UHGV virus genome: UHGV-0278671
Reading direction: 5' to 3' (one strand)
Source of the DNA: a virus
Length of the DNA: 27,730 bases
Each line of letters opens with the position of its first letter. Positions within the stretch are counted from its first letter, which is position 1. The position numbers were made by a program, and so were the translations under genes. The notes beneath the pieces are model-generated. The model saw only the letters and a program-made list of their open reading frames with translations. It had not been told where the DNA came from and searched no databases. Shown piece after piece: positions 1 through 27,730 of this stretch.

Positions 1-89
1 CTGTGTAGTACGCCGTCTGCGTTTCTCCGGTCCTAAGACATCAATCATCTGCTCTCCAATGACTAGTCTAAAAACTAGTATTAAGACTA

Positions 90-335
90 TCACTTATTTA
101 AGTGATATTGGTTGTCTGGAGATTCATGGGGCCAGTCTACTGCTCTATCAGTTATATCTTTCCCTTCATATACTTCACCTATATTGCTAATGCTGGCAGA
201 ACATCCAAGATGCTTGTATCTTATGATGTCCAACACGCAGTCACTACACAGCATCCGACCTGTTTCTTTAGAGTAAATGTATGTTTGATCAGCGTCTGAT
301 TCGCTAATGCCGCAGAAACAACATTCTTTACTCAT
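90..335 (-). CDS. Hypothetical zinc-ribbon protein (CCFCG...CSDC), sits where P22 has the antirepressor
   Basis: 81-aa ORF; ATG overlaps the stop of the upstream Arc-like ORF (ATGA), suggesting translational coupling; four Cys in a CxxC...CxxC arrangement. Function not recognised. Confidence 0.45.
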   Translation of the reverse strand: MSKECCFCGISESDADQTYIYSKETGRMLCSDCVLDIIRYKHLGCSASISNIGEVYEGKDITDRAVDWPHESPDNQYHLNK

Positions 336-472
336 ACCGTTATCCCCTCTCTCTTCAGGCTGTCCATCACCCGTTTAATTACTTCTGCACTAAATGAGCG
401 ACACTCTTCCTTTGCTTTCTCTTCAAGGATTTTTTCTAACTTCTCTGGCATACGCAGTGTTTTTACCTTCAT
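332..472 (-). CDS. arc: Arc-like ribbon-helix-helix repressor (46 aa, below the ORF-track size cutoff)
   Basis: Translation MKVKTLRMPEKLEKILEEKAKEECRSFSAEVIKRVMDSLKREGITV resembles P22 Arc as remembered; GGAGG Shine-Dalgarno 5 nt upstream of the ATG; divergent from the Mnt-like gene. Confidence 0.55.
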   Translation of the reverse strand: MKVKTLRMPEKLEKILEEKAKEECRSFSAEVIKRVMDSLKREGITV

Positions 473-502
473 TGCATCCTCCGTTGTATGTGGTACGCAT
501 AC

Positions 503-541
503 ATAGTATTTAGGTACGTATTGATAGTCAATAGATACCTA
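503..541 (-). promoter_or_regulatory. Promoter and palindromic operator of the arc-like operon
   Basis: Minus strand: -35 TTGACT (526-531), 17-nt spacer, -10 TACTAT (503-508). Near-perfect 31-bp palindrome taggtacgtattgaTagtcaatagataccta (511-541) overlaps the -35. Confidence 0.4.
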
Positions 542-577
542 CATATCCTGTGGTAAAAAATTATTCAGGATGTGCCG

Positions 578-826
578 ATGTCTGATCGTAAGTACAAAAA
601 CCCTCAAGTGAATCTGAGGCTTCCTGTAGAGATAAAGGAACGTCTTATTGAACTGGCTGAGGCTAATTCTCGTTCATTAAATGCTGAGATGGTCGCGGCA
701 CTTGAAGCGTGGACCGAAAAAAATAAACACATTCAAGCACTAGACCTTGCAACTATAGCATCACGATTGATAGATCTTGAACACGATGTTGAGACGCTAA
801 AGACCATGTATGGTAAGGATAAATAA
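578..826 (+). CDS. mnt: Mnt-like ribbon-helix-helix repressor
   Basis: NPQVNLRLPVEIKERLIELAEANSRSLNAEMVAAL aligns with P22 Mnt (FNFRMPMEVREKLKFRAEANGRSMNSELLQIV, from memory); AGGA 7 nt before ATG 578; ORF track begins at an in-frame GTG at 572. Confidence 0.7.
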   Translation: MSDRKYKNPQVNLRLPVEIKERLIELAEANSRSLNAEMVAALEAWTEKNKHIQALDLATIASRLIDLEHDVETLKTMYGKDK

Positions 827-828
827 AT

Positions 829-1107
829 ATGACAGATACCAAAGTGAACTTCAGAGAAACCATCTTCAAGGACTCAAGTGATGCTGTAAATGAGTATGCT
901 GATGGATTTGCTTACTCGTCTTTTGGGGATGTCGGAGCAAGATTTGGTTCAATAGCATTTTTTAAGCATGTTTCAGACTGGGTTAATAATGAGGAGATTC
1001 AGCCAGTTAGATACCAAATTGCCAACATTCGCATGAGTGAAAATCAACTTCTTGAACTGGCTAAGTATATAGTTTCTCAACACGAAGAATCAAAAAAATT
1101 AAGCTGA
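829..1107 (+). CDS. Hypothetical protein (92 aa), first gene downstream of mnt-like
   Basis: ORF starts 2 nt after the mnt stop; no recognisable motif. Confidence 0.45.
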   Translation: MTDTKVNFRETIFKDSSDAVNEYADGFAYSSFGDVGARFGSIAFFKHVSDWVNNEEIQPVRYQIANIRMSENQLLELAKYIVSQHEESKKLS

Positions 1108-1297
1108 CAGAGCCATGATTACTTTTCCTGCCGTAAATGCTGATCATGCAGCGGAGAAAAAGAGAACACTTGGTCGTATGGGGTCGACAGGTGGCTTCGG
1201 AGAAAAGTCCAATGCTTCGCCTCCAGTTACCAAGAATGATATAACCAAAAACAATAATATCGCTTATCTTGGAAAACAATACACTGAGGAGCATGCT

Positions 1298-1675
1298 ATG
1301 GGCAGCCCATCAAGAGAAGAGATTGACGCGAAGCTTGGTCAAAACAAAGCAGAAATTGAGTTAATATCTGCTAACATGCGCGCTGAAATTTCAGCTTTCA
1401 GAGAATTCCAATCTAAGCAATTTACAGCTATGAATCAGTCACTTAATGAAATTAAGGGACAGATATTCGCTAGCAATGGCGAAGTTGCAGGGCTCAAAGG
1501 TCAAATTGATGGCATTAAAACATCCATGACCGCGACCCAATGGCTCGTTGGTGCGGTTCTCGCTATGCTTGCGGTAATCATAACGCTTCCGCAGATTCAA
1601 TCTTACTTCAAGGTTTCTGAGCCGACTGCGAAGGAAGCCGCTAGTGAAACCCATGATACCAAAATAAAGCAGTGA
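1298..1675 (+). CDS. Membrane-anchored coiled-coil protein (XhlA-like architecture)
   Basis: GAGGA 8 nt before ATG 1298 (ORF track extends to 1115 through low-complexity sequence); heptad-like N-terminal region then a hydrophobic helix WLVGAVLAMLAVIITLP. Confidence 0.45.
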   Translation: MGSPSREEIDAKLGQNKAEIELISANMRAEISAFREFQSKQFTAMNQSLNEIKGQIFASNGEVAGLKGQIDGIKTSMTATQWLVGAVLAMLAVIITLPQIQSYFKVSEPTAKEAASETHDTKIKQ

Positions 1676-1703
1676 TCTTACCAATAAAACCAGGGAGGAC
1701 AAC

Positions 1704-1931
1704 ATGAAGCAATGGCTCATCATAATTGCTGTTTTTTTGCTCATTTACACTATTTTCCCAGCATTAAAAGCACCAATGCAAATAATTTCACTAGCAATAA
1801 TTGCGATTAGTGCTTTCATTGCAGTAGCCGTACTTGTGTTTAAGGTTTTAAAGTTTTTAGTTTGGCTATCAAAAGATGATGGATGCAAAGTTCATCAAGA
1901 AAAAGAAGGCAAAATAACCAAAGTTGACTAA
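1704..1931 (+). CDS. Small two-transmembrane protein with charged C-terminus (holin-like topology)
   Basis: GGAGG 5 nt before ATG; two hydrophobic helices (LIIIAVFLLIYTIF and IISLAIIAISAFIAVAVLVF) followed by a KDDGCKVHQEKEGK tail. Confidence 0.5.
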   Translation: MKQWLIIIAVFLLIYTIFPALKAPMQIISLAIIAISAFIAVAVLVFKVLKFLVWLSKDDGCKVHQEKEGKITKVD

Positions 1932-4051
1932 CTGTCACTAGCGAGCCATGTAATAATCCCCGTGCGGGCAATGGTTTTTGCTTCATCTGTTGATAAGGTT
2001 TTCTCCCATCTCTTAAATGCCCCAGATTGCATCAGTTTCCTTTCTATTACGCGTCTCACTTCTGCTCTGTCTACTGGTGCGTTTTGCAGGCGAAATAGCA
2101 TTGATTTAAACTCAGGAGAAGACAGTAGAGCATCAGCAGCCTTTATCCTGCTTGTTTTCCCTGACATCAATGCGGACGTTATCACCCCTGTTGCACCTAC
2201 ACCAGGAAGACCAGATAAGCTTGTAACACCTTCCGCCGCAGCAGCTTTTGAGGCTATTCCATAAATTTTTGCTAGACTACCCTTTTCCTTCAGAAAGTTA
2301 TTAACTTGCTGATCCACAAGGCTGCTAGCATACTGCTTACCAGTATTGAGTCTATTCATAGCCTTGGCTGCTTGATAAATCGTATCAAGGCGCTTTGATG
2401 CATCTGTGCCAATAGCATCACGGAGAGCCTTCATATTGGCCCCATTGCGTGACATTCCGTTATACCATTTTACAAATCCATCAACCCCTAATTGCTGACC
2501 TGGTGATTTAGCATAGCTGGTAAATGCTTTATTCATTGAGGTGAGAGCAACTTCCTGCCGCATATCCTTTGGAATCGACTTCATTAATTGCCTAAAGTCG
2601 CCACCGTTTCCTTTTGCCATATTAACAACGGCACTTTCAACTTTTGGAATTGCTGATTGCTGAAGTTTTCTACCCAAGACGGTTACAGCATCATCTTCAA
2701 TGGATTTTCGTTTTTTTACCAACTCCTTACCAAGCGTCCATAACTCCCCTGCGCCATATTTTTCTGCGACAGCCTGTTGGTCATCTGTTATGGCTGCATA
2801 TAACTTTTTAAGAACACCTGTTTCTTCATCCTTGAATGGGCCAGAGCCTTTGCCAATAGCTTGCCCCACCTGCTTTCTAGCGAGATCTAAACGCCCATAC
2901 GTTGGCAAGGTGTTTGGATCAAGTCGGTTCAATGTCCGCTTCATTATTGGAGATAATTCATCAATTCCCCCTATGTCATCAGCAAAATCCTCTAAAAAAT
3001 TCAACGTATTAGTTGCCTCAATCCGGTCTCTTACCGGAACCTTTTCGGCAATTTTGTTGTAGATGTTATCTGACTGATTTTGTAATGATGAAATGGTTTT
3101 ATCAAAATTATCTGCAAGCCTGTCAGAAACCAGTTGCTTATCAAGGCTTCCCCCAAATGAAGTTATCATTTCATCAGCTTTTCTTCCTAATTCAGTAATA
3201 AAACGCTTATGCGCCTCACTAATCTCCGTTCCAGGAAGACTTGCCACTGCATTATCAAGAGCCCTGACAGCAGGATTATTAGAGATCATGCCTGGAGTGG
3301 CATAATTTTCCAGTTCTAGCTCACGGATGGCATTTATCGCGTTAAAATCAGGATTAACTTCATCGGCGAAACCTTGAATAGCTCGTTGCCCGCCAATAAA
3401 TTTATTATCCATTGCGCCAGCAGCTTTCTTTAACGTTGCTTTAGATGATTTACTACCCATCCCTACGGATGAGCGATAAATATCTCCGGCACTATTTTTA
3501 ATTTTTCCTGCAATCTTCCCAAGCGCTGGACCAACAATCTCTGCTACAGGGCCAGCCACAGCGCCAATAGCAGCGCCGGAAGCAACATCGCTATTTGTTC
3601 CATTGGCTACAATAGCCCCTTCTCCAGCACCAAGCCCTGCGGCGGCAGCCAGCCTTGCCGCCCCTTTCGGAACCTGAGAAATAATCCCACCACCACTAAC
3701 AAATGGCGCTGCTTGTCCAACGAACTCACCAACATCTTGTGCGGTTGATGGTTTTGCCGCTAACTTCTGCTGTAGAGACTGAATTGCGGCTTGCTCTTCT
3801 GGTGTCATATCCTGAAATAGACCAACACCTTTACCAACATCCATCAATCCACTGAGAACGCCATACATAAAACGGTCGAAACCGTTAGCATTATTAACAA
3901 CATTTTCCTGTCTGGAATTTTCCTCTGGTGAAACCAAAGGTGATTGCTGCTGCTCTGGTTGGGAATCAAGCACAAAACCATCAGGAAGCTGTGAGTTATC
4001 AGGCTGATTATCGAGAACAAATCCTTCGGGTAAACCTACATCGGTTGCCAT
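1928..4051 (-). CDS. Putative DNA injection/ejection protein (P22 gp16 position), 707 aa
   Basis: Last large gene of the late operon; N-terminal tandem LP(E/D)GFVLD(N/S)QP repeats and Ala/Gly-rich stretches; assignment is by position in the P22-like gene order. Confidence 0.5.
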
Positions 4052-5379
4052 TGTCCGTTCCTATAAATGAGTTTCTGACCAGTTTTAGGGTTCGTTGCCG
4101 TCGCGCCTTCTGATATCCCACTTGGCGCAGCTTTTGTCTGCCCATTACCACCTTGTGGTGTAGGCTGCGCTGTGACATCGTCAAATAGCTTGGCCTTCCT
4201 TCTCCCTAAGCTTTTTTTCAGCCCTTGAGGAATAGTATCTCCATACGTATCCAGATATTCGTCTACCTGCTGGTTAAACTGCTGCCCCATAGCGTTGGCG
4301 TTAATTTTGGCTGCGTTAACAATGTTATCCCTCGCTTCCTGTGACAAGCCATTCCCTGCATTAAGCTGGTCTACATATCCTTTTATCTGCCCCCATATGC
4401 CATCAGAGCGCATGACCTGAACCTGTTCACCTTCGCGAACAACTGACTGAGGGTCGAGAGACTTCATGTAATTAAAGATAATCCCAAGTTGGGCAGCGCC
4501 AGTATTTACCTTGCTAAGGGCTTGCAGAGAGTTTGCCGCCGCTCTGACAGAGTTATAATTTTTGCCAAAATTGGTAATGTCAGAATTTAATCCCTTAATT
4601 AAGTCTGCTGACGGCTTACCTTTTTGCCCCAGCTCCATTAGCTTCACCCCCATCTCATCTGAGTGCATTTGTGCCCGCTGAGCCCTGTCTAGTTGAGCGT
4701 TTTGGATATTTGCCCATCCTCTCACGTTCTCCATGTCAGCCTGACGGATGCTTTCATCCAATCGCCCTTTCTCTAGTTGGCGACCAACCATCTTATCCTG
4801 ATAATCCAGCATTTTATCAGGACCAACAGCCCCTAGCGTCATAGTAGTCAGCATGTGTGATAGCTGCTCTGGATTCTGGATACCTGTCTGAATCATCCAG
4901 TCAGCATTAGCACCAACGCGATTTAACCTGTCCTTGTTGTCAGTAATGAATTTACTGTAGGCTTCCGGTCCCTGAGAAAGAGCGACGTTAGCCCTCATGG
5001 CTAAATCGCCCATATCGTTGCGTTGCTGCTCATTAAGACCGGAAAACGCCTGTTGTGCCTGTGCAACAAACGCTGGATTTTCCTTGGCAAACTTAAATAG
5101 TCCCGATGGATCACCAGAAGCCCATGCATCAGCGTGAACCTTATTGAACGCACTAATCGCTTTCTGTTGCTGTTCCTGATTGTAAATATCAGCAACTCCA
5201 GCCAGACCACGTAACGCGGTCAGACCAACGTTATTTGCACCTGAGCGAGCCAACTCATTGTTTTCGCGGATCAGACCAAGCGTTGCGTTAATGTCGCTTG
5301 CCTTTGGCGCATTCTCATTTTGCGTACCGATGCCAGCCAGAAAACCACCAGAATTAATACCCTGTTGCCAAGTAGCCAT
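4036..5379 (-). CDS. Putative DNA injection/ejection protein (P22 gp20 position), 447 aa
   Basis: Follows the tail-needle gene; Gln/Asn/Ala-rich like internal ejection proteins; positional inference. Confidence 0.5.
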
Positions 5380-5389
5380 TGATTACCCC

Positions 5390-5764
5390 TTAAAACAGCG
5401 AACCAAGCAGACCAAGACCAGCACCGATAACCTCATCCAGCAAGTAATCAACATCGCTACGCAGTACGACTATCTTCCCTTCGGCAGTTGTTAACCTGAC
5501 CTCAAGTAGATTTATCGCTTTTGTGTTTGCGGTGATTCTTGCGTCGTGATCAGCCAGTTCGACATCCTGTTCATCGTTTTTCACCTGAGCATCGTAAGCG
5601 CCCTGACCAGCCTGATTTGCCTTCCCGGCAATTGCGCCGACATCAGCCCCCTGATTAATGACATACAGCAGGTAAGACTGGCTGAATATATTGCGTGGCA
5701 AAATTGAAGCATCAAGCCGCGTAGCCTGAACCACAACAGGTGTATTGAGATTCGAATCAGCCAT
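5390..5764 (-). CDS. Tail needle protein (P22 gp26-like), unusually short at 124 aa
   Basis: [73 protein letters not shown] matches the P22 gp26 N-terminus as remembered; start is the internal ATG at 5764 overlapping the gp10 stop. Confidence 0.6.
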
Positions 5765-6754
5765 TACTCGATCCTTATCTGGCAGCCTGACAGAGTGACA
5801 GGTGACTTCGTGATAACGCGCAATCTGAAGCCGACATTTTTCCTGATGCGCCCGACACGCTTCCACAAAACGCGCTTGTCGTAAACGAACGGTTCATTCT
5901 GCTCAATCATCTGCTCACGACCGTAATTGATGCCGTCAGTGGTTGCAGAGAGAAAAAGTCGGTCAGCATACTGCGCAACGCCAGTTGACGATTCAACTTC
6001 AAGGTCGAAAACTCTGGCGTTATCCGCTTTGAACAACGGAGTAAACAGCAGGTGTTCCTGCTGCTTGTCGTACTGGCTGCTGATATCGAACTGCAATTTC
6101 CCGGTAACAGATTCCAGCTTATCGCCGCACGTTATCTGATTGCCTTCGTAAATGAAGTCGATAGCGCGGTACACATCGTCATACAAGCCAGTTTTCAACA
6201 CACACCATTGCGGACCATTGGCGCTTGAAGATGCGTCGTACACGAGGACATGATGCGGAAGGTGGATAATCAGCAACTCATGAGCATCAAATCGCAGAGA
6301 CTCCATCACGCCATCAGCCAGTTCATCAGCAGTGTAGGAGCGGAGGATTTTCTCAATGCTCGCGCTGGCGATTGGTGACACCTGACCGGAGCCGATGATG
6401 TATACAGACGGCGCACCTGTTGCCGGATTGCTGATGAACGCATAAGAATCAGCGAATGGCGTTTTGCAGTACACGACCACTTCCGGCAACATCACCGACT
6501 TCACTTTCTCCTTTGTACAGCTTGCCGCCACACACGCGATAAACAGCACTCTGCGCCATGTTGTACTCAACTCCGCGCGATACGCCGTTCACATCAGAAC
6601 GTTTGGCAATGCCCGGGAATGAGCGAAGATATCCGCTGCTGTTCAGGATTTCTTTGGGTGTAGCCAACATATTCACTGGCAGATAGTCGATATAGTCGGC
6701 GTTTCTAAAGTCTTTGCCGACACCTTTCATAAGCGGAAGTTGCTGAATCGGCAT
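5764..6754 (-). pseudogene. P22 gp10-like tail accessory gene, disrupted by an internal deletion and frameshift
   Basis: 6449..6754 encodes a gp10-like N-terminus (MPIQQLPLMKGVGKDFRNADYIDYLPVNMLATPKE...); 5764..6570 encodes a gp10-like C-terminus from YCKTPFADSYAFISNPATGAPSVYIIGSG in another frame; junction near 6470, about 130 codons missing. Confidence 0.6.
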
Positions 6755-6763: not shown

Positions 6764-7225
6764 TCACGTACTCGGATCATCTTTCTCGATGTAAAACCGA
6801 TTCCACGTAAACGCGCTTTTGTTACCACTACCGCGAGGCATATCATTTCGCCGCTCAAGTGGTGGTATTTTGGTTAAAGCGATACAGATTGTTTGATATG
6901 CACTGTCAGCAGCGGTAAGGAGAGCGTCTGACGGCTGAATGACGTTATCCATGCACACTTGCACAGCGAGTTTCAAAGCGACGCCATCATTTGCCCATGC
7001 AGGGATACCTGAATCATCGTCAGGTAACGGCATGATGCCGTTTTCTGTATCAGCAAACTGATACCCAAGCTCGATACCTTTCGCCTGCCATGCTGCCATC
7101 ATGTCTTCGAGGTCATTAATGGCATCTTCAATTGCCTGAGGGTCAGCATCTGTCAACGTGGCATTGGAATACAGCCCGGCTTTTCGTAAAGCCTTTAGAA
7201 CGAGATCACCCTTCGTTTTCGCCAT
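6764..7225 (-). CDS. Head completion/tail accessory protein (P22 gp4-like)
   Basis: MAKTKGDLVLKALRKAGLYSNATLTDADPQAIEDAINDLEDMMAAW resembles P22 gp4 as remembered. Confidence 0.7.
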   Translation of the reverse strand: MAKTKGDLVLKALRKAGLYSNATLTDADPQAIEDAINDLEDMMAAWQAKGIELGYQFADTENGIMPLPDDDSGIPAWANDGVALKLAVQVCMDNVIQPSDALLTAADSAYQTICIALTKIPPLERRNDMPRGSGNKSAFTWNRFYIEKDDPST

Positions 7226-7394
7226 CTTCTTCCGCCTTAGCCACTTTTTGCTTCGTTGCGGTTTCTTCAGGAGTTTTTACCCAACCTTTTTTCAGGTGAG
7301 ATTTAACTTCTTCGTCATCAACAATGATGTAATCGACAGCAAACTGACCACAGGTGATCATGTTGCCAGGCTTATAGAGCATTGTTCGTGCCAT
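7206..7394 (-). CDS. Small hypothetical protein (62 aa)
   Basis: GGGAG 6 nt before the internal ATG at 7394; ORF track extends to 7433. Confidence 0.35.
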   Translation of the reverse strand: MARTMLYKPGNMITCGQFAVDYIIVDDEEVKSHLKKGWVKTPEETATKQKVAKAEEDGENEG

Positions 7395-7435: not shown

Positions 7436-8527
7436 TTACTGCCCGGCAATAACGATGCCCGTATATTCAGGAACAAGTACAGAGCAACCGTACAGGGTGG
7501 TGAAACGCGCAGTGGTTACACCTTTGATGTGGTCGAAGGCGTAAGACATGATCAGCGTAGCGCCCTGCTCGGTGGTTGCTGTCATTACCTGTGGACCCTG
7601 ACCAGTCGGGAACGCCAGCTTGCCGTACATCAGTTCAACAGAACCATCAGCCCAGAACAGGTTAGCCGGTGCGGCATTTTTGTTGAGAATGGTGATTGCT
7701 GCGCCACTTGCCGCATTAGCATCAACGTTTGCATATGGTCGGCTGGCGACATCCGCGTTGTCAGGCGGCAGAATTTTCGGTGAGATAGTTACTGTCGTTC
7801 CGCTTACTGCCAGAACGCGGAATACCTGCGGCTGCCCGGTGGTATCTTTGGTGATCTGGTGTACAGAATTCACCCCTGCGATGGTAAACGCATCGCCAAC
7901 CTGCAAACCTTCAGCAGATACCGTAATGGTCCCCTGTCGGTTATCCACTGGCATATCGTTAGCATCTTTGGCTTCAACCTTGTGCGCAGGTGCTGCTGCC
8001 AGCGTAATGGAAGTTGCTATACCCTTCGGAACACGACCAGAAATATCGGTCTTGTAGCTATCGAAGGACGCAACCGGAGGGATTTGCGCTTTTTCGTATG
8101 CTGTCAGGGTTGTGCCCTGAGCATAGGCACGGTGACCAAGCTCGCCAGCAAGGTCTTTGTAGTTGAAGGGGTTCCAGAAAGAGCGACGGTTGATACCCTG
8201 AGGTACACCAATCGCCGTCATGGTGGCATCAATACCTGCCGCACAGTTCCACAAATCACGGCCCTGTGAACCTGTGGTTGAGTCAGCCATCGTGATCACG
8301 TTAGTAGCACGCTGCGTAACCATGGAAATCAGGTCAGAGTCAATCTGTGCAGCAAGGCGCATACCTGCGGCGCGACCAGCTTCAGTTTTATGTTCCGGGT
8401 CACGCATTTCACGCGCATCCAGAGTGTACAGAATGTTTTTCGGCTCCTTGAACACAGAAGGAACAAGGCGCTGAACCAGTGCTGTTGGCGTTTTGCCGCT
8501 GAGGTCTAGGCCTTCCTCAATGTTCAT
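7436..8527 (-). CDS. P22-like major coat protein, probably missing its N-terminal ~50 residues
   Basis: FWNPFNYKDLAGELG, RPYANVDAN and LFWADGSVEL resemble P22 gp5 segments (from memory); the ORF begins where P22 coat residue ~55 aligns. Confidence 0.6.
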   Translation of the reverse strand: MNIEEGLDLSGKTPTALVQRLVPSVFKEPKNILYTLDAREMRDPEHKTEAGRAAGMRLAAQIDSDLISMVTQRATNVITMADSTTGSQGRDLWNCAAGIDATMTAIGVPQGINRRSFWNPFNYKDLAGELGHRAYAQGTTLTAYEKAQIPPVASFDSYKTDISGRVPKGIATSITLAAAPAHKVEAKDANDMPVDNRQGTITVSAEGLQVGDAFTIAGVNSVHQITKDTTGQPQVFRVLAVSGTTVTISPKILPPDNADVASRPYANVDANAASGAAITILNKNAAPANLFWADGSVELMYGKLAFPTGQGPQVMTATTEQGATLIMSYAFDHIKGVTTARFTTLYGCSVLVPEYTGIVIAGQ

Positions 8528-18606: not shown

Positions 18607-18623
18607 TCACGCAAGGGGCGATT

Positions 18624-19252: not shown

Positions 19253-19359
19253 ACCAAAGAGTAGTTGGCTTTGGGGTGACGTGAAGTGCAGCTGCACGAC
19301 GGCAACCGGAAGATAAGCACCCGGCGCGTCACCTCCAAAGTCAATCATCGGAGATCAAC

Positions 19360-19632: not shown

Positions 19633-19635
19633 GTG

Positions 19636-19860
19636 ATGAATCAGACATACATTCCATCATGCTTGAGAAATCTGCCAAAGCAGAAAGCAAAGCCCCGCAA
19701 GCAAGCCATAAAGGACGCTAAGGCAGAGGTTATTGATCAAGCAATACAATTGCTCAGGGAGGAGTTAAGAAGTGGCAAGCTCGAAGGAATGATGATGCCC
19801 TATCAGCGCGGATATCTATCGGCGATTAGTAAGTTGGAAGTATTGAAGAGTGAATTATGA
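19636..19860 (+). CDS. Hypothetical protein (74 aa)
   Basis: Starts immediately after the N stop; GAGG 7 nt before ATG 19636. Confidence 0.4.
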   Translation: MNQTYIPSCLRNLPKQKAKPRKQAIKDAKAEVIDQAIQLLREELRSGKLEGMMMPYQRGYLSAISKLEVLKSEL

Positions 19861-19922
19861 ACTATCTGGAATTTCCGGATGGTTCATTGTTTTGGCAGCA
19901 AACCACTTATTTGAGGTGAGAT

Positions 19923-20393
19923 ATGACAAAATCATGGAGCGTACCTTTTCCTGAATCAGAAACTGAACATGATGGAATGCCTGTTTTCTGGAGATTCCAG
20001 GCGACAGTTGAAGAAGATGGGATAAAAATATTCGCACTTCAATATATAGCTTTTCATCAGACAGAGCATTATGCATGGTTGGTTCCTGCGCATTGGATTG
20101 TTAATTTTAAACCAGCACCAAATCAGTGGTTACAGGAATGGAAACAAAGGAGAAATAGATATGCAATTAAGAAAGTAGCAAAAAATGCAGAAAGATCTTT
20201 TGCATTCCCAACGAAGAAACTTGCCATTGAGAGTTTATTGCGCCGGAAGAAATACCATTTAATGAGAATCAAACAAGATTTGGCTGTTGTATCAACTCTT
20301 GTTGATGGGATGAAGAATATTGATACATCAACACCAGATATTGAATATAACTTTGGACACAACCAAGAAACAGAAAATTGGGTATTCTACTAG
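19923..20393 (+). CDS. Hypothetical protein (156 aa) in an AT-rich segment
   Basis: GAGGTGAG before the ATG; visibly lower GC than neighbouring genes; no recognisable motifs. Confidence 0.5.
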   Translation: MTKSWSVPFPESETEHDGMPVFWRFQATVEEDGIKIFALQYIAFHQTEHYAWLVPAHWIVNFKPAPNQWLQEWKQRRNRYAIKKVAKNAERSFAFPTKKLAIESLLRRKKYHLMRIKQDLAVVSTLVDGMKNIDTSTPDIEYNFGHNQETENWVFY

Positions 20394-20626
20394 GACGCAT
20401 AGTCGGCCTTTATTTTTGGCATAAACAACAGAATAAATACTGCACTGTGTATTCATTCCAACGAGTGAATACACGGAGCAATGTCGCTCGTAACTAAACA
20501 GGAGCCGACTTGTTCTGATTATTGGAAATCTTCTTTGCCCTCCAGTGTGAGGGCTTTTTTATATGCATACCAATAACGCTTCACTCGAGGCGTTTTCGTT
20601 ATGCAATCAAACAGAAGGAGCATCCT

Positions 20627-20797
20627 ATGCAACAGTTCGCTATTGCAGGGGCGGCATCGGTTCGCCCTTTCAACCCGATTTTATCGGTACAGCATTCACG
20701 AAAAAACATTCTAACCGGAGCAGACTTTAAACAACCAAGAATGAAAAGTTTGCTCGAAAAGCTTTGGGATATTTTGAAACAACAAGGCCGCCCATGA
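20627..20797 (+). CDS. cIII: CIII-like protein (FtsH inhibitor)
   Basis: 56 aa MQQFAIAGAAS...LLEKLWDILKQQGRP resembles lambda CIII (MQYAIAGWPVAG...WKRLIDILNQPG); AAGGAG 6 nt before the ATG. Confidence 0.65.
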   Translation: MQQFAIAGAASVRPFNPILSVQHSRKNILTGADFKQPRMKSLLEKLWDILKQQGRP

Positions 20798-20952
20798 GTT
20801 TTACAGATAACTGGTCAGACGAAGAATTCATTCGTCAGATGAAAGAATTAATCGGTAACGAAGGAGATATTCATGTCACTTGCAACCACAGTGAAGGAGA
20901 GCAAGTTACAGAGACGCATGTACACGCAGAAAGCTCTCTGGTATCGCCATAA
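20794..20952 (+). CDS. Small hypothetical protein (52 aa) at the kil/arf position
   Basis: ATG overlaps the cIII stop (ATGA). Confidence 0.35.
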   Translation: MSFTDNWSDEEFIRQMKELIGNEGDIHVTCNHSEGEQVTETHVHAESSLVSP

Positions 20953-21051
20953 TGGCGACCGCGAAGGAATGCGGGTATGCCTTAATTTGTCCCGAGTCGA
21001 AGTATTAAATCAGCGTTATTTCCTTGGGCCGTGTCCATTCTGAGGTGAATT

Positions 21052-21759
21052 ATGGATTTGAACAAATTCGATGAGCCATTCAGCCCTGAAGATATCGAAT
21101 GGCGAATACAGCAAAGCGGTAAAACACGCGATGGCAAAGTGTGGGCTATGGTGCTGGCTTATGTCACGAACCGGGCAATCATGAAACGCCTGGACGATGT
21201 TTGCGGCAAAGCAGGATGGCGCAATGAATACCGCGATATTCCCAACAACGGCGGCGTTGAATGCGGCATATCAATAAAGATTGATTCCGAATGGGTAACC
21301 AAATGGGATGCTGCTGAAAACACGCAGGTAGAAGCCGTCAAAGGTGGTCGTTCCGGTGCAATGAAGCGCGCTGCCGTTCAGTGGGGAATCGGTCGGTATC
21401 TGTATAACCTTGAGGAAGGTTTCGCACAAACATCTCTCGATAAAAAGCAGGGGTGGCACAGGGCAAAACTCAAGGATGGAACAGGATTTTACTGGCTCCC
21501 TCCATCGCTGCCGGGATGGGCAATCCCAGCATCAGATAACAAACCATCACCAGAAAGTACCAACCAGAAATCTCCATCGGTTGACTGCGAGAAAATCCTG
21601 AAAGACTTCAGCGATTATGCGTCAACAGAAACTGACAAGAAAAAACTCATCGAGCGTTATCAGCGTGACTGGCAATTAATGGCTGGCAATGAGGATGCGC
21701 AGGCTAAATGCGTTCAGGTAATGAACATCAGAGTTAACGAGCTAAAACAGGCGGCATAA
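21052..21759 (+). CDS. Single-strand annealing protein: Rad52/Sak-like N-terminus fused to an Erf-like C-terminal domain
   Basis: N-terminal region resembles Rad52-family annealing proteins; C-terminus YASTETDKKKLIERYQRDWQLMAGNEDAQAKCVQVMNIRVNELKQAA matches the P22 Erf C-terminus as remembered. Confidence 0.75.
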   Translation: MDLNKFDEPFSPEDIEWRIQQSGKTRDGKVWAMVLAYVTNRAIMKRLDDVCGKAGWRNEYRDIPNNGGVECGISIKIDSEWVTKWDAAENTQVEAVKGGRSGAMKRAAVQWGIGRYLYNLEEGFAQTSLDKKQGWHRAKLKDGTGFYWLPPSLPGWAIPASDNKPSPESTNQKSPSVDCEKILKDFSDYASTETDKKKLIERYQRDWQLMAGNEDAQAKCVQVMNIRVNELKQAA

Positions 21760-22233
21760 ATGGCAAGCAGAGGCGTAAATAAGGTGATCATTATTGGTCG
21801 CCTTGGGCATGATCCAGAAATCAGATATTCACCATCAGGAACGGCATTTGCAAACCTTACAGTTGCTACGTCAGAACAATGGCGTGATAAGCAAACTGGA
21901 GAGCAAAAGGAGCAGACGGAGTGGCACCGTGTGGTAATGAGCGGGAAACTGGCAGAAATTGCCAGCGAGTATCTGCGGAAAGGCTCAGAGGTTTATCTTG
22001 AAGGCAAATTGCGGACAAGAAAATGGCAGGATCAAAGTGGACAGGATCGGTTCACTACCGAAGTTATCGTAGGCGTTGGTGGAACCATGCAAATGCTTGG
22101 TGGCAAGCAAGGAGGCAATGAACAGTCTTCACCTCAGCGAAATAACGGTCAGCAACAAAGACAGCAACCTCAGCAGCATGGAAATCACAGCGAACCACCT
22201 ATGAACTTCGACGATTCGGATATTCCGTTCTAG
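21760..22233 (+). CDS. ssb: Single-stranded DNA-binding protein
   Basis: [23 protein letters not shown]...TEWHRVV...LRTRKW... near-identical to E. coli SSB as remembered; acidic tail ending DSDIPF. Confidence 0.9.
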
Positions 22234-22242
22234 GAGCTGAAT

Positions 22243-22722
22243 ATGAAAATCTGCTCAAGATGCCATCAACAGAAGGAAGAAAGGGACTTTCAAATCAGAA
22301 GAGCATCCAGAGATGGATTAACTGCCGCTTGCCGGGCTTGCCTGGCTGAATATGACAAAGAGCGCGCGGGATTGCCACATCGAGTATCAGCAAGGAGAGA
22401 ATATCAATCATCGGAACGCGGCAGAGAACGGTGTAACGCAGCCAAAAAGCGGTTCATTCAGAGCAACCCATGGAAAAGAAAAGCCCACATCATCGTGGGT
22501 AATTTTTTGCGCGACGGTAAGCTAATCCGACCACCACAATGTGAGTGCTGCGGATCAGAATGTAAACCACAGGCGCACCACTGCGACTACAGCAAACCAA
22601 CCGATGTGATGTGGCTCTGCAAGTCATGTCATGTCGAGTGGCACAAACATAACAAACCTATCTACCCAGACGAGGAGCCAGTAACTCTCCCCTTCCCTCG
22701 TCACGCTATTCACGCAATTTAA
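22243..22722 (+). CDS. HNH-family endonuclease-like protein with N-terminal Cys cluster
   Basis: CSRCH...CRAC and C-terminal QAHHCDYSKPTDVMWLCKSCHVEWH fit a zinc-bound HNH motif. Confidence 0.55.
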   Translation: MKICSRCHQQKEERDFQIRRASRDGLTAACRACLAEYDKERAGLPHRVSARREYQSSERGRERCNAAKKRFIQSNPWKRKAHIIVGNFLRDGKLIRPPQCECCGSECKPQAHHCDYSKPTDVMWLCKSCHVEWHKHNKPIYPDEEPVTLPFPRHAIHAI

Positions 22723-22730
22723 GGACTTAC

Positions 22731-23279
22731 ATGAATCACTTGATGGTTGACCTTGAAACAATGGGCAACGGGCCATACGCGCCAGTTATTTCTATTGGGG
22801 CGGTATTCTTTGACCCGAATACCGGAGAAACAGGAGAAGAGTTCTCGGTAAATATCTCGCTTGAGTCATCAATGCGATATCGGGCGCGTCCTGACGCTTC
22901 AACGATTTTATGGTGGCTGGAACAGAGTGAAGAAGCCAGAAAATCGCTAACCAGCAACATTCAGGAGCTTTCAACGGCTCTTTCATGGTTATCTGAATTC
23001 ATCATAAAGAACGCTAACCACAAATTCGTTCAGGTTTGGGGGAATGGAGCATCATTTGACTGCGTTATTCTCCGAAACAGTTATTCGCTGACAGGGCAGC
23101 CAGTTCCATGGCAGTGGTGGAATGACCGCGACGTAAGAACAATCGTCGAGCTTGGAAAGGTAATAGGATTCGACCCTAAGCGAGATATGCCATTCAAAGG
23201 AACTCGCCACAACGCTCTTGATGATGCCATTCACCAAGCCAAATACGTTTCAGCGATCTGGAAAAAGTTAGCTAAATAA
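22731..23279 (+). CDS. DnaQ-like 3'-5' exonuclease
   Basis: DEDDh-type motifs: MVDLET (Exo I), FDCVILRN (Exo II-like), HNALDDA (Exo III). Confidence 0.65.
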   Translation: MNHLMVDLETMGNGPYAPVISIGAVFFDPNTGETGEEFSVNISLESSMRYRARPDASTILWWLEQSEEARKSLTSNIQELSTALSWLSEFIIKNANHKFVQVWGNGASFDCVILRNSYSLTGQPVPWQWWNDRDVRTIVELGKVIGFDPKRDMPFKGTRHNALDDAIHQAKYVSAIWKKLAK

Positions 23280-23295
23280 TCAACAGGAGAAAACC

Positions 23296-23589
23296 ATGCC
23301 AGCGCCTCTGTATGGTGCGGATGACGCGCGCCGCTGTTCCGGCAATTCCGTATCGGAGGTGCTGGATAAATTCAGAAAAAACTACGATCGGATAATGTCG
23401 CTACCGCAGGAAACGAAAGAGGAAAAGGAATTTCGCCACTGTATATGGCTTGCAGAGAAAGAAGAACGCGAGCGAATTTACCAGACATCAATCCGACCAT
23501 TCCGCAAAGCCACATATACCCACTTCCCTGAAATTGACCCGCGCCTGCGTAATTACCGCTCACGCTATGGTGCTATCAGTAATGACTGA
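23296..23589 (+). CDS. Hypothetical protein (97 aa)
   Basis: AGGAG before the ATG; no recognised motifs. Confidence 0.45.
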
Positions 23590-23599
23590 GGAATTTACC

Positions 23600-23767
23600 A
23601 TGAGAGGACTTGCATACAATCCCGGCATTCTTCCGGCAGAAATGATTATTCGCCAACGCGTAAAGCCAATGCCATCGAGAGAGGAATTGCTTAAGAGAAA
23701 TAGTTTCGGTTCTGTTAATGACAACAAATATCTGAATGCAATGTGGCGCAAAGGAGGCAAGCAGTGA
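23600..23767 (+). CDS. Small hypothetical protein (55 aa)
   Basis: GAGGA 8 nt before ATG 23600; stop overlaps the next gene's GTG start. Confidence 0.3.
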
Positions 23768-24354
23768 GCAACATCGACAAACAGGCGCAGCGTAAAGCAA
23801 AGGTAATCACAAAGGAATTTGTTGAGGAACACCTTCACTACGATGGGAAGGATTTTTTCTGGAAGAAGCGCGAACCAAGTTCGTTTTCTGACAGCCGCAC
23901 ATGCAAGGTTTGGAATACTCGAATTGCAGGGAAGCGGGCCGGAGGAATCAGCGCTCAAGGTTATGTAGAAATTCAAATCAAAGGGAGTCGATATAAGGCT
24001 CATAGATTAGCGTGGTGTCTTGTTCATGGCGATATACCAACAGACATGCAGGTTGATCACATTAACCACGACCGAACTGATAACCGAATAGAGAATCTGC
24101 GCCTTGTTGATAATCAGGGAAACCAAAAGAACTCTTCGATACGAAAGGACAACATTGGAGGCTGCACAGGTGTTACCTGGAATCCTAGCCATAAAAGATG
24201 GATTGCCTACATACGCGAAAATGGTAAGCACAAGCACATTGGTAGCTTCATTAAATTCTCTGATGCTGTAAGAGCAAGAGAGGAAGCTCAGGCAAGGCTT
24301 GGATTCCACATGAATCACGGCGCCGCTGGCATTCGCATCAAAGGAGGTGAGTAA
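23764..24354 (+). CDS. HNH homing-endonuclease-like protein with C-terminal AP2-type DNA-binding domain
   Basis: [36 protein letters not shown] (HNH motif); C-terminal [27 protein letters not shown] (AP2-like); AAGGAGG 6 nt before GTG 23764. Confidence 0.65.
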
Positions 24355-24530
24355 TGCGTGTGGCATTTTTCGGCTTGTTACCGTACCCGACTCGTTTTTG
24401 GGCTTCTGCGCTAATTGCAAAGCCACAGGTCCTGATGGCTGACAACATCACCCCAGCACCAAAGCGCCGCCATACCGGTATTGCAGCTGCACGGCGCGCA
24501 GTAAAGAAACGCAGGAGAGCAAAACGATGA
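24354..24530 (+). CDS. Small basic protein (58 aa), below the ORF-track cutoff
   Basis: AGGAGG 6 nt before the ATG, which overlaps the HNH stop (TAATG); hydrophobic N-terminus and Arg/Lys-rich C-terminus. Confidence 0.3.
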   Translation: MRVAFFGLLPYPTRFWASALIAKPQVLMADNITPAPKRRHTGIAAARRAVKKRRRAKR

Positions 24531-24718
24531 AAAACCGTAAAGCAAAGATGCTTATTTCCCGTGTATACAGCCGTTGCTATCCCAGCCAGTGGTTGAGAGT
24601 TAGCAATCGCCGTATGGTGTTGTACTTATATTCTGGAATTGCCAGAGAGGGAATCAAAGATAAGCCCAGCGCAGCGCAAAACCGCTGGAAAAACCACTTG
24701 CGCACTAAAGGAGAGTAA
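24527..24718 (+). CDS. Small basic hypothetical protein (63 aa)
   Basis: ATG overlaps the upstream stop (ATGA). Confidence 0.35.
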   Translation: MKNRKAKMLISRVYSRCYPSQWLRVSNRRMVLYLYSGIAREGIKDKPSAAQNRWKNHLRTKGE

Positions 24719-24719
24719 T

Positions 24720-24938
24720 GTGCCAACATTATTCAGAAAAGAATATCCGCGAAGAAGTCGAATAACAGAACTCCTGTTTATCATTCTGTTTATCGTGTTG
24801 ATGATACCGATAAACCTGCTGTTTCTGGTTTGGATAATCGGAAAAATATTTGAGCCGATTGTTGAATTGTATATCGATATGACATGGGAACCATTCAGGG
24901 CGCTACACAATAAAATTAATCCGTATAAGGAAAGCTGA
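24720..24938 (+). CDS. Small single-pass membrane protein (72 aa)
   Basis: GTG start with AAGGAGAG upstream; hydrophobic helix LLFIILFIVLMIPINLLFLVWIIG. Confidence 0.35.
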   Translation: MPTLFRKEYPRRSRITELLFIILFIVLMIPINLLFLVWIIGKIFEPIVELYIDMTWEPFRALHNKINPYKES

Positions 24939-24939
24939 T

Positions 24940-25203
24940 ATGGCAACTTTGACAAAAAAAGAACAGGCATGGTTGAACGAATTACAGGAAGTTCTTGATC
25001 GCTGTCCATCACCGAAAAAAATTGGTTTTTACACCATTGGCGATAAAAGCATTTACCTGTATGACCTGCGCCGCATGGATGAAATCATGGAGGCTCTTGA
25101 TAATCGTTCGTCGATGGATTGGTGTGTTGCTGTCCATGATATGAATGCAGGGTTTGATGAAAAGATTTTGTTCCCCTCATCAGTTGAAAGCACTGCGGGT
25201 TAA
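24940..25203 (+). CDS. Hypothetical protein (87 aa)
   Basis: AAGGAAAG before the ATG; starts 2 nt after the upstream stop. Confidence 0.45.
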   Translation: MATLTKKEQAWLNELQEVLDRCPSPKKIGFYTIGDKSIYLYDLRRMDEIMEALDNRSSMDWCVAVHDMNAGFDEKILFPSSVESTAG

Positions 25204-25213
25204 GGAGTAACAC

Positions 25214-25999
25214 ATGACCACTATTACCAAAGAACGTATCGAATTGTTCATTAAATCCCCGCTTGAAAACGGGCTTACCCGTGGCGAACAAATGGAAGTG
25301 GCACGGATTGCTTTGGCATCACTGGAAGCAGATCCTATTGGTGAAGTTTCAGAGAAGCGATACGGCCTTATTATGGATGGAACGGTAGACCTTGGCGGGA
25401 AATCAACTTATCGCATCATTAAGGGAGAAAAAGCGATGAAGTTGTTTCCGCTGGGGACGAAGTTTTATACCGCCCCGCCAGCGCCGGTATCTGTGCCCGC
25501 TGCGATGGAAATTGATGATGACTTTGACAGCGCGTTTGAACACGGAAAAGCTGTCGGCTGGAACGCCTATCGCGCCGCCATGCTTCAGGCCGAACCTGTA
25601 AGTAATAGTGATGAGTTACCGCTGGACTATCTGCAAGGACACAAAGACGGCCTGGAGTGGGCTGCACAATTGGCAGAAGCCAATCATCCGCAAACAGGTG
25701 ACTGGTTGTACGACGACCAAATCGATCTTGCCAGGGCGATTCGCAAAGGTCCGGATATGCCTACTGTTCAGGGTGGCAACTCTCCGGTAACTCCGGATGG
25801 TTGGATAAGCTGTAGTGATCGAATGCCGGAAGACACCAAAATGTTACTGGCATTTAGTCAAGGTGAAATCGTGGCCGCATATTGGAACTGGGTTGTAAAT
25901 CCAATTGATTACAAAAAATATAGAGCTTTCACGTATTTATCAGGAAATATCTTGGATGACGTAACTCACTGGATGCCGCTACCAGAGCCTCCACTTTGA
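25214..25999 (+). CDS. Hypothetical protein with DUF551-like C-terminus
   Basis: AAGGAG before the ATG; C-terminal W-rich segment ending THWMPLPEPPL is typical of DUF551 phage proteins (from memory). Confidence 0.55.
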   Translation: MTTITKERIELFIKSPLENGLTRGEQMEVARIALASLEADPIGEVSEKRYGLIMDGTVDLGGKSTYRIIKGEKAMKLFPLGTKFYTAPPAPVSVPAAMEIDDDFDSAFEHGKAVGWNAYRAAMLQAEPVSNSDELPLDYLQGHKDGLEWAAQLAEANHPQTGDWLYDDQIDLARAIRKGPDMPTVQGGNSPVTPDGWISCSDRMPEDTKMLLAFSQGEIVAAYWNWVVNPIDYKKYRAFTYLSGNILDDVTHWMPLPEPPL

Positions 26000-26095
26000 A
26001 AGCGAAGCTTATACATATCTTTTACATCAGCAATCTATTGTTAATCTCCAATCAATGTTACGTTGTCATCTCTCTCATGCTTTGGAGGTAGTGAT

Positions 26096-26275
26096 ATGTC
26101 TTGTCCAAAATGCGGTTCTGGAAATATTGCAAAAGAAAAAACAATGCGTGGATGGTCTGATGATTATGTGTGCTGCGATTGCGGATACAACGACTCTAAA
26201 GACGCATTTGGAGAGCGTGGTAAAAACGATTTTGTCAAAATTAATAAAGAACGCGAAGGCAACGAAAAAAGCTAA
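26096..26275 (+). CDS. Small zinc-ribbon protein (59 aa)
   Basis: GGAGG 6 nt before ATG 26096; CPKCGSG...CCDCG pairs. Confidence 0.4.
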   Translation: MSCPKCGSGNIAKEKTMRGWSDDYVCCDCGYNDSKDAFGERGKNDFVKINKEREGNEKS

Positions 26276-26338
26276 TTTATTTATTCATATATGAAAACAA
26301 TGTAACCAATATTCGAATTGAAGAACTGAAAGAACACC

Positions 26339-26364
26339 AAGCCGCCTGATGGCGGTTTCTTTTT
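26339..26364 (+). terminator. Candidate Rho-independent terminator at the end of the early-left operon
   Basis: GCCGCC-TGAT-GGCGG hairpin followed by TTTCTTTTT. Confidence 0.4.
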
Positions 26365-26379
26365 GCCTGGAGAATTAAG

Positions 26380-26571
26380 ATGACCGATACCAGCCTGATT
26401 CCTGAGAAAGAAGTGATGAACAAGCTCGGTGTTTCATCACGTCAGACAATCTGGAACTATACCAAACGGCACGGATTTCCGAAGCCAGTCAGAACCCACC
26501 CCAAATCATACCTTCGTGAAGCTGTTGAGGGGTGGATTCTTAACGGTGGCGTTAATCAGAAATGCTCCTGA
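26380..26571 (+). CDS. alpA: AlpA-family regulator/excisionase
   Basis: 63 aa with HTH KEVMNKLGVSSRQTIWNYTKRHGFPKP typical of the AlpA/Xis family; GGAG before the ATG. Confidence 0.65.
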   Translation: MTDTSLIPEKEVMNKLGVSSRQTIWNYTKRHGFPKPVRTHPKSYLREAVEGWILNGGVNQKCS

Positions 26572-27730
26572 TGTGCCAGAACAATTTATCAGCGTGAAGC
26601 TCATACGCTTTGCGCTGAGCCTCTATCCAGTCGTGTTTATTGTATACGGACATTATCCCGCCAAGTTCATGACCGAGCATTCGCTCAGTAACATGAGGCT
26701 CGACATTCATCTCGGACAGACGTGTAACAAGCGTTCTTCTGAAATCGTGTGTTCGCCAGTAACCTAGATCCATCCCTCCCCTTATTCTATTTACGAATCG
26801 GTTGGCTGCAGCGATGCTGATCGGTTTGTTTATGTCTTCTCCAGGGAAAAGAACATCATTGTACGTTGTCATGGCCTTTTCGAGGAAAGGCTTAATTTGT
26901 TCGAAGATTGGACGGCGGATAACATTACCCATCTTGCTATGCTCTTTCGGTACGGTCCATACGTTTTCCAGCAGGTCAAATTCTGTCTTTTTTGCCAGCC
27001 TAAGCTCTGAGAGCCTCGCCCCCCACAGCATAAGCATCTGATGAAGTAGCTTATTTGACGTAGACGCACGGCTTCTTTCAATAGCAAGCCAAATCTTAGC
27101 CAGTTCGTGATACGACAGTACCCGATCCCCTACCTCAGCGCGGGAGCCGAAGTCCCTTGGTTGGATGCTCATAATTGCGCAACTATCTATCAACTGACGC
27201 CGCATGCACCAACTTATTGCTGATCTTAGTTGACTTAGCACCTGCCTTGCTCGGCGTGGATTATCTTTTTCTTCTTCGGTAAGCAGGTCAACCCATTGCT
27301 TAACCGTGATAGAAGATGCCGGACGATTAGGAAAGGCGTCATGCATGCGCTTCATAACCGTTGATCGGTAAAGTGCCTGGGTCTTTTCTCTGAGAGTTGT
27401 AGAGACGTAGTTGTCGAACCAGTAGTCGAGACACTGGGCGACCGTCATGGAGTTCTCCACCTTCTCTTCAAAATAAGTGCGTGGATCCGTTCCTGAGAAA
27501 TAGAGCTTTCGCAAGTCAGCAGTGATCTGTCTGGCATCCTTCAAAGACAGGGATGGGTATCGACCAAGCCCAAGTCGATTAGGCTTGCCATGCCAGCGAT
27601 AGCGGTACTGGAACTGGATGACCCCCTTCGGTGAAATTCGTACGCTGAGGCCATCGGCATCAGCCACTTCTTGTGGGCCCGAATATGGTTTACCATAAAT
27701 AGTACGCAGTTTTGTGTCGCTTATAGCCAT
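26552..27730 (-). CDS. int: Tyrosine-type site-specific integrase (P4-like arm-binding N-terminus)
   Basis: 392 aa; N-terminal LRTIYGKPYSGPQEVADADGLSVRISPKGVIQFQYRYRWHGK; C-terminal catalytic residues in HDFRRT...LGHE...YNKHDW; start codon is the last three bases of the window. Confidence 0.9.
   Translation of the reverse strand: MAISDTKLRTIYGKPYSGPQEVADADGLSVRISPKGVIQFQYRYRWHGKPNRLGLGRYPSLSLKDARQITADLRKLYFSGTDPRTYFEEKVENSMTVAQCLDYWFDNYVSTTLREKTQALYRSTVMKRMHDAFPNRPASSITVKQWVDLLTEEEKDNPRRARQVLSQLRSAISWCMRRQLIDSCAIMSIQPRDFGSRAEVGDRVLSYHELAKIWLAIERSRASTSNKLLHQMLMLWGARLSELRLAKKTEFDLLENVWTVPKEHSKMGNVIRRPIFEQIKPFLEKAMTTYNDVLFPGEDINKPISIAAANRFVNRIRGGMDLGYWRTHDFRRTLVTRLSEMNVEPHVTERMLGHELGGIMSVYNKHDWIEAQRKAYELHADKLFWHIRSISD

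Follow-up and report, generated by a model that had tools for sequence, protein, structure and literature searches.

The 27,730-nucleotide stretch of the virus genome UHGV-0278671 that was analysed as a whole here (the window) very probably represents most of a defective P22-like prophage of the Sf101/Sf6/HK620 type, which was inactivated by five independent microhomology-flanked deletions and one insertion of an insertion sequence (IS) of the IS3 family, with lesions that are probably young and, as far as the databases show, strain-private. The element belongs to a type that is already known and is made from known genes. The first-pass annotation of this sequence had called it a cryptic prophage, a name that is supported by the lesions in its lytic genes together with its intact early modules.

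Identity and organization of the element

Megablast of the window against 50,697 phage records and 5,426 complete Escherichia coli genomes revealed a mosaic P22-like (Lederbergvirus) genome, whose kin include Sf101, Sf6, HK620, CUS-3 and many E. coli prophages, and no record in these two sets carries at least 80% of the first 25 kb in one place. The late genes are located on the minus strand at ~1.9-10.9 kb and are followed by the nin genes at 10.9-14.1 kb, and the replication genes (14.2-17.0 kb) and cII/cro (17.2-17.8 kb) are read from the same strand. The plus strand carries cI, N and the PL operon (17.9-26.3 kb), and the right end (26.4-27.73 kb) is made up of an excisionase-like gene and the gene of a tyrosine integrase of 392 amino acids (aa).

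For every virion gene or remnant in the window, gene order and homology are of the P22 type. The small terminase (TerS), scaffold, gp14 and gp7 genes are absent, those of the large terminase (TerL), portal, coat, gp10 and gp26 are present as fragments only, and the tailspike region falls outside the window, which is a derivative of the P22-like (Lederbergvirus) family and not a complete member of it. The early region is lambdoid: besides cI/cro/cII and N it contains the nin genes and a replication module whose origin lies within the initiator gene, and it is collinear with Sf101, HF4s and the E. coli prophage L029 (Logan ERR2737930 contig 700). HF4s has an identical cro and a cI region of 98.7% identity to that of the window. 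Genes essential to lytic growth carry inactivating lesions (the five deletions and the IS), as in a defective prophage; besides TerS and scaffold, the window lacks holin, endolysin and spanins, and Q is kept as an N-terminal stub only.

Deletion junctions and broken genes

The junctions were mapped by local blastn against fetched intact relatives, and each of them was reproducible against several references with consistent deletion sizes (Table 1), the five deletions summing to ~8.7-8.8 kb. Alignment of the whole element to intact P22-like genomes recovered the four lesions listed in the first-pass annotation (a Q-to-terminase deletion, a portal-to-coat deletion, a disruption of gp10 and a truncated Dam) and added J1 and the IS end to them. 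The Q-to-terminase deletion is real and consists of a single junction, J4, at which ~4.3 kb was lost, comprising the rest of Q, holin, endolysin, spanins, Rha/DUF2560, the small terminase and the TerL ATPase domain, as well as tRNAs in some relatives. The portal-to-coat deletion is likewise real (J3), and its loss includes the scaffold gene, the portal C-terminus and the first ~52 coat codons, while gp10 is indeed disrupted, by the frameshifting deletion J2. Dam is truncated as had been proposed, and this truncation is part of J5, which also took NinE and the 5' end (first 28 codons) of a Dcm-type C5-cytosine methyltransferase gene. At J1, the loss extends from the C-terminus of gp26 through gp14 into gp7, of which only the last ~13 codons remain.

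Every broken gene shows truncated Pfam coverage, and the limits of this coverage agree exactly with the mapped junctions. For instance, the Phage_stabilise (gp10) profile was matched at positions 1-92 and 234-469 of 469. The gp26/gp7 fusion open reading frame (ORF) has no Pfam match, and its product is not on record.

Outside these lesions, full-length Pfam matches were obtained for Cro, cI, N, cII, O, primase-helicase, Rad52-type annealase, SSB, Abc2, Xis and Int, and the early proteins have the same length as in relatives. The origin was recognized inside the O gene as four iterons of 19-20 nucleotides (nt) at 16576-16661 next to an AT-rich tract at 16550-16574. The immunity, replication, recombination and integration modules are intact as far as their sequences tell, and the complete-looking cI/cro/N switch, origin, primase-helicase, annealing protein/SSB and integrase of the first-pass annotation are upheld at this level.

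Two of the remnants show further peculiarities. At 8524-8530, the TGA stop of the truncated portal gene overlaps an internal ATG of the coat gene (ATGA), a chance mimic of a translationally coupled pair, and a coat protein without its N-arm could be made from this internal ATG if the region is transcribed. As well, the frame of the Dcm remnant stays open into the Dam remnant up to a GTG (12518-13465), giving 315 aa against 314 aa in the intact protein, and automatic annotation could take this ORF as intact though the native first 28 residues (MTAYYNEIDPYAAQWLRNLIDAGEIAPG) have been replaced.

Table 1. Coordinates of genes, remnants and deletion junctions (J1-J5) in the window.
Feature	Position	Strand	Description
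IS3-family insertion sequence end	1-139	-	Terminal inverted repeat and first 16 orfA codons (MIDVLGPEKRRRRTTQ), read leftwards from 48
67-aa ORF (phrog_7150), codons 1-65	140-335	-	Downstream of arc; cut by the IS two codons before its end
immI region	332-826		arc 332-472, minus, 46 aa; mnt-like Arc-family repressor 572-826, plus
Three cargo ORFs (92, 186, 75 aa)	829-1931	+	sieA position, between mnt and gp16
Ejection proteins, intact	1928-5379	-	gp16-like, 707 aa, 1928-4051; gp20, 447 aa, 4036-5379; Inj_translocase (Pfam)
gp26/gp7 fusion ORF	5390-5764	-	gp26 codons 1-113 and ~13 last gp7 codons
J1	5425-5429		gp26 codon 113 joined to last ~13 codons of gp7; 1,474-1,480 bp lost; microhomology 1-5 nt, reference-dependent
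Split gp10	5764-6754	-	N-terminal fragment 6449-6754; C-terminal fragment 5764-6570
J2	6470-6471		Out-of-frame deletion within gp10; 428 bp; microhomology TA
gp4, intact	6764-7225	-	153 aa
62-aa ORF	7206-7394	-	
Coat protein remnant	7436-8533	-	Without first ~52 codons; P22_CoatProtein profile 60-423 of 423
Portal remnant	8524-9864	-	N-terminal 444 codons, stop 2 codons past J3; P22_portal profile 2-395 of 594
J3	8530-8533		Coat from ~codon 53 joined to portal to ~codon 444; 2,026 bp; microhomology GGTA
Large terminase remnant	9866-10753	-	C-terminal (nuclease) part; Terminase_3C only (Pfam)
J4	10752-10753		TerL from ~codon 177 joined to Q to ~codon 50; 4,265-4,374 bp; microhomology TT
Antiterminator Q remnant	10752-10902	-	First ~50 codons; Phage_antitermQ profile 3-35 of 118
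nin genes, intact	10893-12531	-	NinI phosphatase 10893-11564; NinH 11542-11748; NinG 11745-12356; NinF 12349-12531
C5-cytosine methyltransferase remnant	12518-13378	-	Without start codon and first 28 codons
J5	13377-13378		Dam codons 1-92 joined to Dcm starting at codon 29; 513 bp; microhomology TA
Dam methyltransferase remnant	13377-13652	-	Codons 1-92; Dam profile 1-90 of 169
NinB	13649-14089	-	Intact
Toprim/DnaB-type primase-helicase	14167-16047	-	Intact
O-like initiator	16155-17015	-	Intact
Immunity switch	17008-19632		DUF2740 ORF; cII 17187-17480, minus; cro 17589-17783, minus; OR operators 17784-17889
cI	17890-18606	+	S24 peptidase domain
122-aa membrane ORF	18624-18992		
PL/OL and nutL	~19120-19262		
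N	19360-19632		
PL operon	19633-26294	+	74- and 156-aa ORFs, then cIII-like ORF ending 20797
Rad52-type annealase	21052-21759	+	PL operon
SSB	21760-22233	+	PL operon
159-aa Zn-finger endonuclease-like ORF	22243-22722	+	PL operon
DnaQ-like exonuclease	22731-23279	+	PL operon
Abc2	23296-23589	+	PL operon; followed by DUF2737
HNH endonuclease (HNH/AP2)	23764-24354	+	PL operon; followed by small ORFs
DUF551 protein	25214-25999	+	PL operon end; followed by Lar-like ORF
Excisionase-like helix-turn-helix protein	26380-26571	+	
Sf101-type tyrosine integrase	26552-27730	-	392 aa; window end is the int start codon

Probable recent inactivation and the question of domestication

None of the junctions occurs in the 5,426 complete E. 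coli genomes, which were searched by megablast with junction-spanning segments (draft genomes and Shigella lay outside this DNA search), and the closest relatives all show the intact arrangement; in one such comparison, 5.5 kb of query aligned in four pieces that extend over 9.43 kb. Exact 30-33-mers over all five junctions had no match in the viral collection, and those over J3 and J4 had none in the genome-representative or metagenome collections. When five truncated or fusion products were looked up as exact sequences, none was on record, and among the many contigs carrying gp16-like, NinG, N and gp4 genes, none has the lesions of the window.

Judged by its sequence, the inactivation looks recent, because the remnants contain neither stop codons nor small indels, show at most 13 window-unique substitutions in 5.9 kb, and because the arms are 99.9-99.99% identical to intact prophages. 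Over 22 kb of coding DNA, no more than 23 substitutions are unique to the window. The dN/dS of the remnants against relatives is 0.02-0.11, with gp26' excepted.

The first-pass annotation had read the element as a domesticated prophage retained for accessory functions, that is, a long-term resident whose immunity, replication, recombination and cargo genes were kept under host selection while its morphogenesis decayed. In favor of this, the lesions are found only in the late and nin regions, with the early half untouched, and a protective effect on the host is plausible for cI immunity as well as for the ORFs located at the sieA position. Moreover, incomplete prophages have been shown to follow a general trend in which lysis, portal and terminase genes are lost, integrase is kept, and transposase is gained or enriched (PMC7744054). 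The losses in the window match this trend and are therefore typical of incomplete prophages, as had been stated, but they are no evidence on the cargo of this element, and the step from this pattern to domestication is not supported. All five deletions lie within the late and nin stretch, which makes up ~57% of the reconstructed ancestral sequence; by our own arithmetic the chance of such a placement is ~0.57^5 = 0.06, so that the clustering is only marginal.

Bobay et al. are said to have used the term domesticated prophage in 2014 in a sense that combines vertical inheritance, purifying selection and a host-beneficial function. The junctions are absent from all collections in which they were sought, and there is therefore no sign that the same remnant has been conserved vertically. 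As regards purifying selection after inactivation, the changes available to a selection analysis of the retained genes, which had been suggested earlier, are very few: the intact genes (16.1 kb) carry 7 synonymous and 3 non-synonymous window-unique substitutions, and the remnants (5.9 kb) carry 8 and 5, respectively. Remnants and retained genes alike are nearly identical to intact prophages, leaving no time for visible selection. cI immunity is the host-beneficial function to be expected, while the cargo ORFs are not peculiar to the remnant and match no known defence family. With unshared junctions, remnants almost free of point decay and marginal clustering, we consider domestication unlikely.

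Nature of the junctions

Microhomology at J1 to J5 measures 1-5, 2, 4, 2 and 2 nt, respectively, reaching at least 2 nt at four of the five junctions, while a random junction would show an ambiguity of 2 nt or more only ~16% of the time (own arithmetic, equal base frequencies). No long direct repeats that could have mediated the deletions were found in the window. On these sequence features, the junctions are regarded as probable products of illegitimate recombination in vivo and not as assembly errors.

The opposite view, in which the deletions would be assembly errors, amplification chimeras or the seams of a composite sequence, might be taken from the truncated products that occur in no collection, from the start of the window inside a repeat (the IS), as is common for contig ends, and from the shift of identity to a given reference at some junctions, e.g., from 99.9% to 93% at J1 for the E. 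coli prophage L003 (GCA_037641545.1). It is nonetheless very improbable, because short-read assemblers jump at long shared k-mers, whereas the 1-5 nt seen here are typical of illegitimate recombination in vivo and the window has no long internal repeats; in addition, independently decayed relatives with other deletions exist (L018, L028 and L031). The shifts of identity are explained by mosaic boundaries in the deleted segments, and L005 and L041 match both flanks of J3 equally well. A chimera suggested by the change of best-matching reference at the junctions was rejected on the ground that mosaic boundaries can sit inside deleted DNA.

It is hardly credible that the element is a helper-dependent satellite, i.e., a streamlined element that has retained int, xis, replication functions and a small number of virion genes and depends on a P22-like phage in the same cell for its mobilisation, since the intact Int, Xis, autonomous replication module, immunity, gp4, gp20 and gp16 that such a view could invoke stand against the missing small terminase (and hence, by analogy with P22, presumably no pac site), the absence of capsid-redirection or helper-sensing genes, a structural region in which out-of-frame pseudogene pieces take the place of a reduced but working gene set, and a size of 27.7 kb, far above that of known satellites, whereas PICI-like or P4-like satellites are compact, carry a packaging signal and helper-exploitation genes, and have no pseudogenised virion genes.

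Predicted behaviour and possible origins of the lesions

In a lysogen, cI would repress PL and PR and confer immunity to phages of the same repressor specificity. Under SOS conditions, cI is predicted to undergo autocleavage (S24 domain with GDSM motif), upon which N, O, primase-helicase, Xis and Int would be expressed, and the induced element could still replicate and would probably excise. Late transcription, lysis, packaging and assembly would not be expected, as the element is without Q and the site on which Q acts, has lost the lysis cassette and both terminase functions, and lacks scaffold as well as several virion proteins. In P22, the pac site lies within the small-terminase gene, and by this analogy the deletion of that gene would leave the element unable to package its DNA.

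The preserved early half probably reflects too little time for decay, and counter-selection of deletions in which cI is lost while the replication genes stay may contribute. Because recent and private lesions would explain the preserved early half, a demonstrated domestication is not needed for it.

Several points weigh against a recently inactivated, strain-private defective prophage as the full account. The att sites and host flanks are outside the window, which ends at the int start codon and begins inside the IS, and the Ant and tailspike region beyond the IS is outside it as well. For truncated products, absence from the record is weak evidence, as pseudogenes often have no protein entry. 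The recency rests on a limited set of relatives, and the best whole-segment identity of the head-gene segments in complete E. coli genomes is only 97.3-99.0%. In addition, the functionality of the early genes is read from sequence alone. Finally, simple gradual neutral decay would not obviously lead to five deletions of 0.4-4.3 kb and an IS while point mutations are nearly absent, and the spectrum is unusual in this respect.

This odd spectrum could be read in different ways. Host-level selection for the loss of lytic genes is possible and would explain mainly the first hit, and it is also possible that the arms were refreshed through recombination with incoming phages. A deletion burst, for example in one abortive induction in which the nicked replicating prophage was repaired by microhomology-mediated joining, appears improbable; the cell would then have survived owing to the loss of the lysis cassette. 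If true, a burst would explain many large deletions with hardly any point decay, and the survivor would be an SOS-inducible element that is able to excise and replicate and unable to lyse the cell.

Comparison with related phages and prophages

Phage Sf101 (KJ832078; Lederbergvirus) shares with the window its integrase (98.6% DNA identity over the part fetched), an identical excisionase-like ORF, the segment of NinB, primase-helicase and O (13,379-17,179; 99.4% identical without gaps), the NinF-NinG-NinH-NinI block and the overall P22/Sf6 gene order. Unlike the window, Sf101 is a complete, plaque-forming and serotype-converting phage, whereas the window has no working Q, lysis, terminase, scaffold, gp14 or gp7 genes, its portal, coat, gp10, gp26, Dam and Dcm genes are broken, and no oac gene is visible in it. 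The immunity region and PL operon of Sf101 are other mosaic modules, with cI only ~73% identical at the DNA level. Sf101 integrates in the 5' end of sbcB (PMC4159516), and in relatives with the integrase type of the window, int is located ~180 bp from sbcB. The 13-bp Sf101 att core (CGTAATCGTGAAA) was not found in the window.

Among intact E. coli prophages, L001 (NZ_CP062855.1, at sbcB-dacD) has the same integrase beside sbcB and the same gene order throughout. L029 differs from window positions 17,501-27,730 by 1 mismatch in 10,230 bp, L003 from positions 140-5,424 by 4 mismatches in 5,285 bp (99.9%), and L019 from the nin segment by 2 mismatches in 2,623 bp. In contrast to the window, L001, L003 and L029 possess the deleted segments, and L029 and L001 carry other variants of the nin and Q modules; the 18.6 kb fetched of L029 contains full-length Dam, NinX, NinG, NinH, NinI and Q together with the start of the holin gene. 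A sharp mosaic boundary is located in cII (17180-17500; L029, L009), to the right of which the window equals L029, whereas the left side is Sf101-like (99.4%) and only ~95% identical to L029 by our own arithmetic.

IS-disrupted, Sf101-like remnants at sbcB have been reported in Shigella flexneri (PMC4159516). Like the window, these and other P22-like or lambdoid remnants (L018, L028 and L031) have lost lytic genes by deletion or IS and kept integrase and repressor. Unlike it, each has its own lesions with no junction in common, and the window stands out by the completeness of its early half and by how little point decay it shows. L018 has lost everything from cro to NinE, which brings cI next to NinF; cI of L028 borders on a gp16 fragment, gp10 of L031 borders on the holin gene, and the late region of L021 is inverted and rearranged. 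None of these four has a junction of the window, and their differing lesions fit frequent, idiosyncratic decay. In addition, genes for HNH (NUMOD4) homing endonucleases are inserted among the virion genes of two relatives, between gp4 and gp10 in L041 (8472-10563, with a duplicated 34-aa gp10 stub) and between coat and scaffold in L046 (9894-10409).

Left edge, cargo and ejection genes

The IS end at the left edge has thousands of copies in E. coli, annotated as IS3 family transposase, and from the start of orfA and the inverted repeat we take it to be IS2 or IS2-like. The window begins inside this IS, with the IS/phage boundary at 139/140, and in NZ_CP158426.1 the host gene broken by the same IS resumes exactly where window position 140 aligns. 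The junction between IS and phage at 139/140 is present in none of the complete E. coli genomes (5,426). The start of the window within an IS repeat suggests a draft contig broken at the IS. The 67-aa ORF is followed in relatives by the antirepressor Ant and the tailspike.

The immI region is 96.4% identical to L001 (9001-9501), and the cargo ORFs next to it (829-1931) show 99.9% identity to L003 and are present in intact prophages. Together with those at 18624-18992 and 19633-20393, they are identical or nearly identical to the copies of intact prophages. The cargo ORFs belong to PHROG families without an assigned function and match no PADLOC model of a known defence family. The gp16-like and gp20 ejection proteins are 100% and 99.9% identical, respectively, to copies of intact prophages, and an identical gp4 is recorded in 32,926 collection blocks (groups of contigs).

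Immunity region and PL operon

By eye, paired operator palindromes (AATAC...GTATT) were recognized between cI and cro and again ahead of N, with a nutL of boxA/boxB-like make-up after them. The cIII-like ORF, also read by eye, would encode a putative protein of 56 aa (MQQFAIAG...). Between ssb and the exonuclease gene lies the Cys-rich ORF of 159 aa (phrog_2340 'endonuclease', with weak Lar-like similarity), which is identical in L029; its DNA is 98.7% identical at L001 39444-39923, where RefSeq left it unannotated.

The gp17 superinfection exclusion and kil genes of L001 and Sf101 are missing from the PL operon, and an additional lesion was considered here and rejected. Window positions 20432-21044 are collinear, at 98.2-98.5% identity, with the isolated phage vB_EcoP-720R6 and with L013; as the module without gp17 and kil is common to an isolated phage, it is a natural variant and not a lesion. 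There are no tRNAs in the window, and an Rfam scan of it gave no family at gathering score.

Implications

Defective P22-like (Sf101-type) prophage is a fitting label for the window, in which the truncated ORFs of portal, coat, terminase, gp10, gp26, Q, Dam and Dcm are best annotated as pseudogenes. Contrary to the first-pass annotation, the defective state does not raise the prior for host-beneficial cargo, because intact prophages carry the same ORFs without change and the inactivation seems to be of recent date. The finding has little importance beyond annotation. Nevertheless, clonal relatives, if found, could show the speed and order in which a prophage is dismantled, in this case by five large deletions and an IS with few substitutions.

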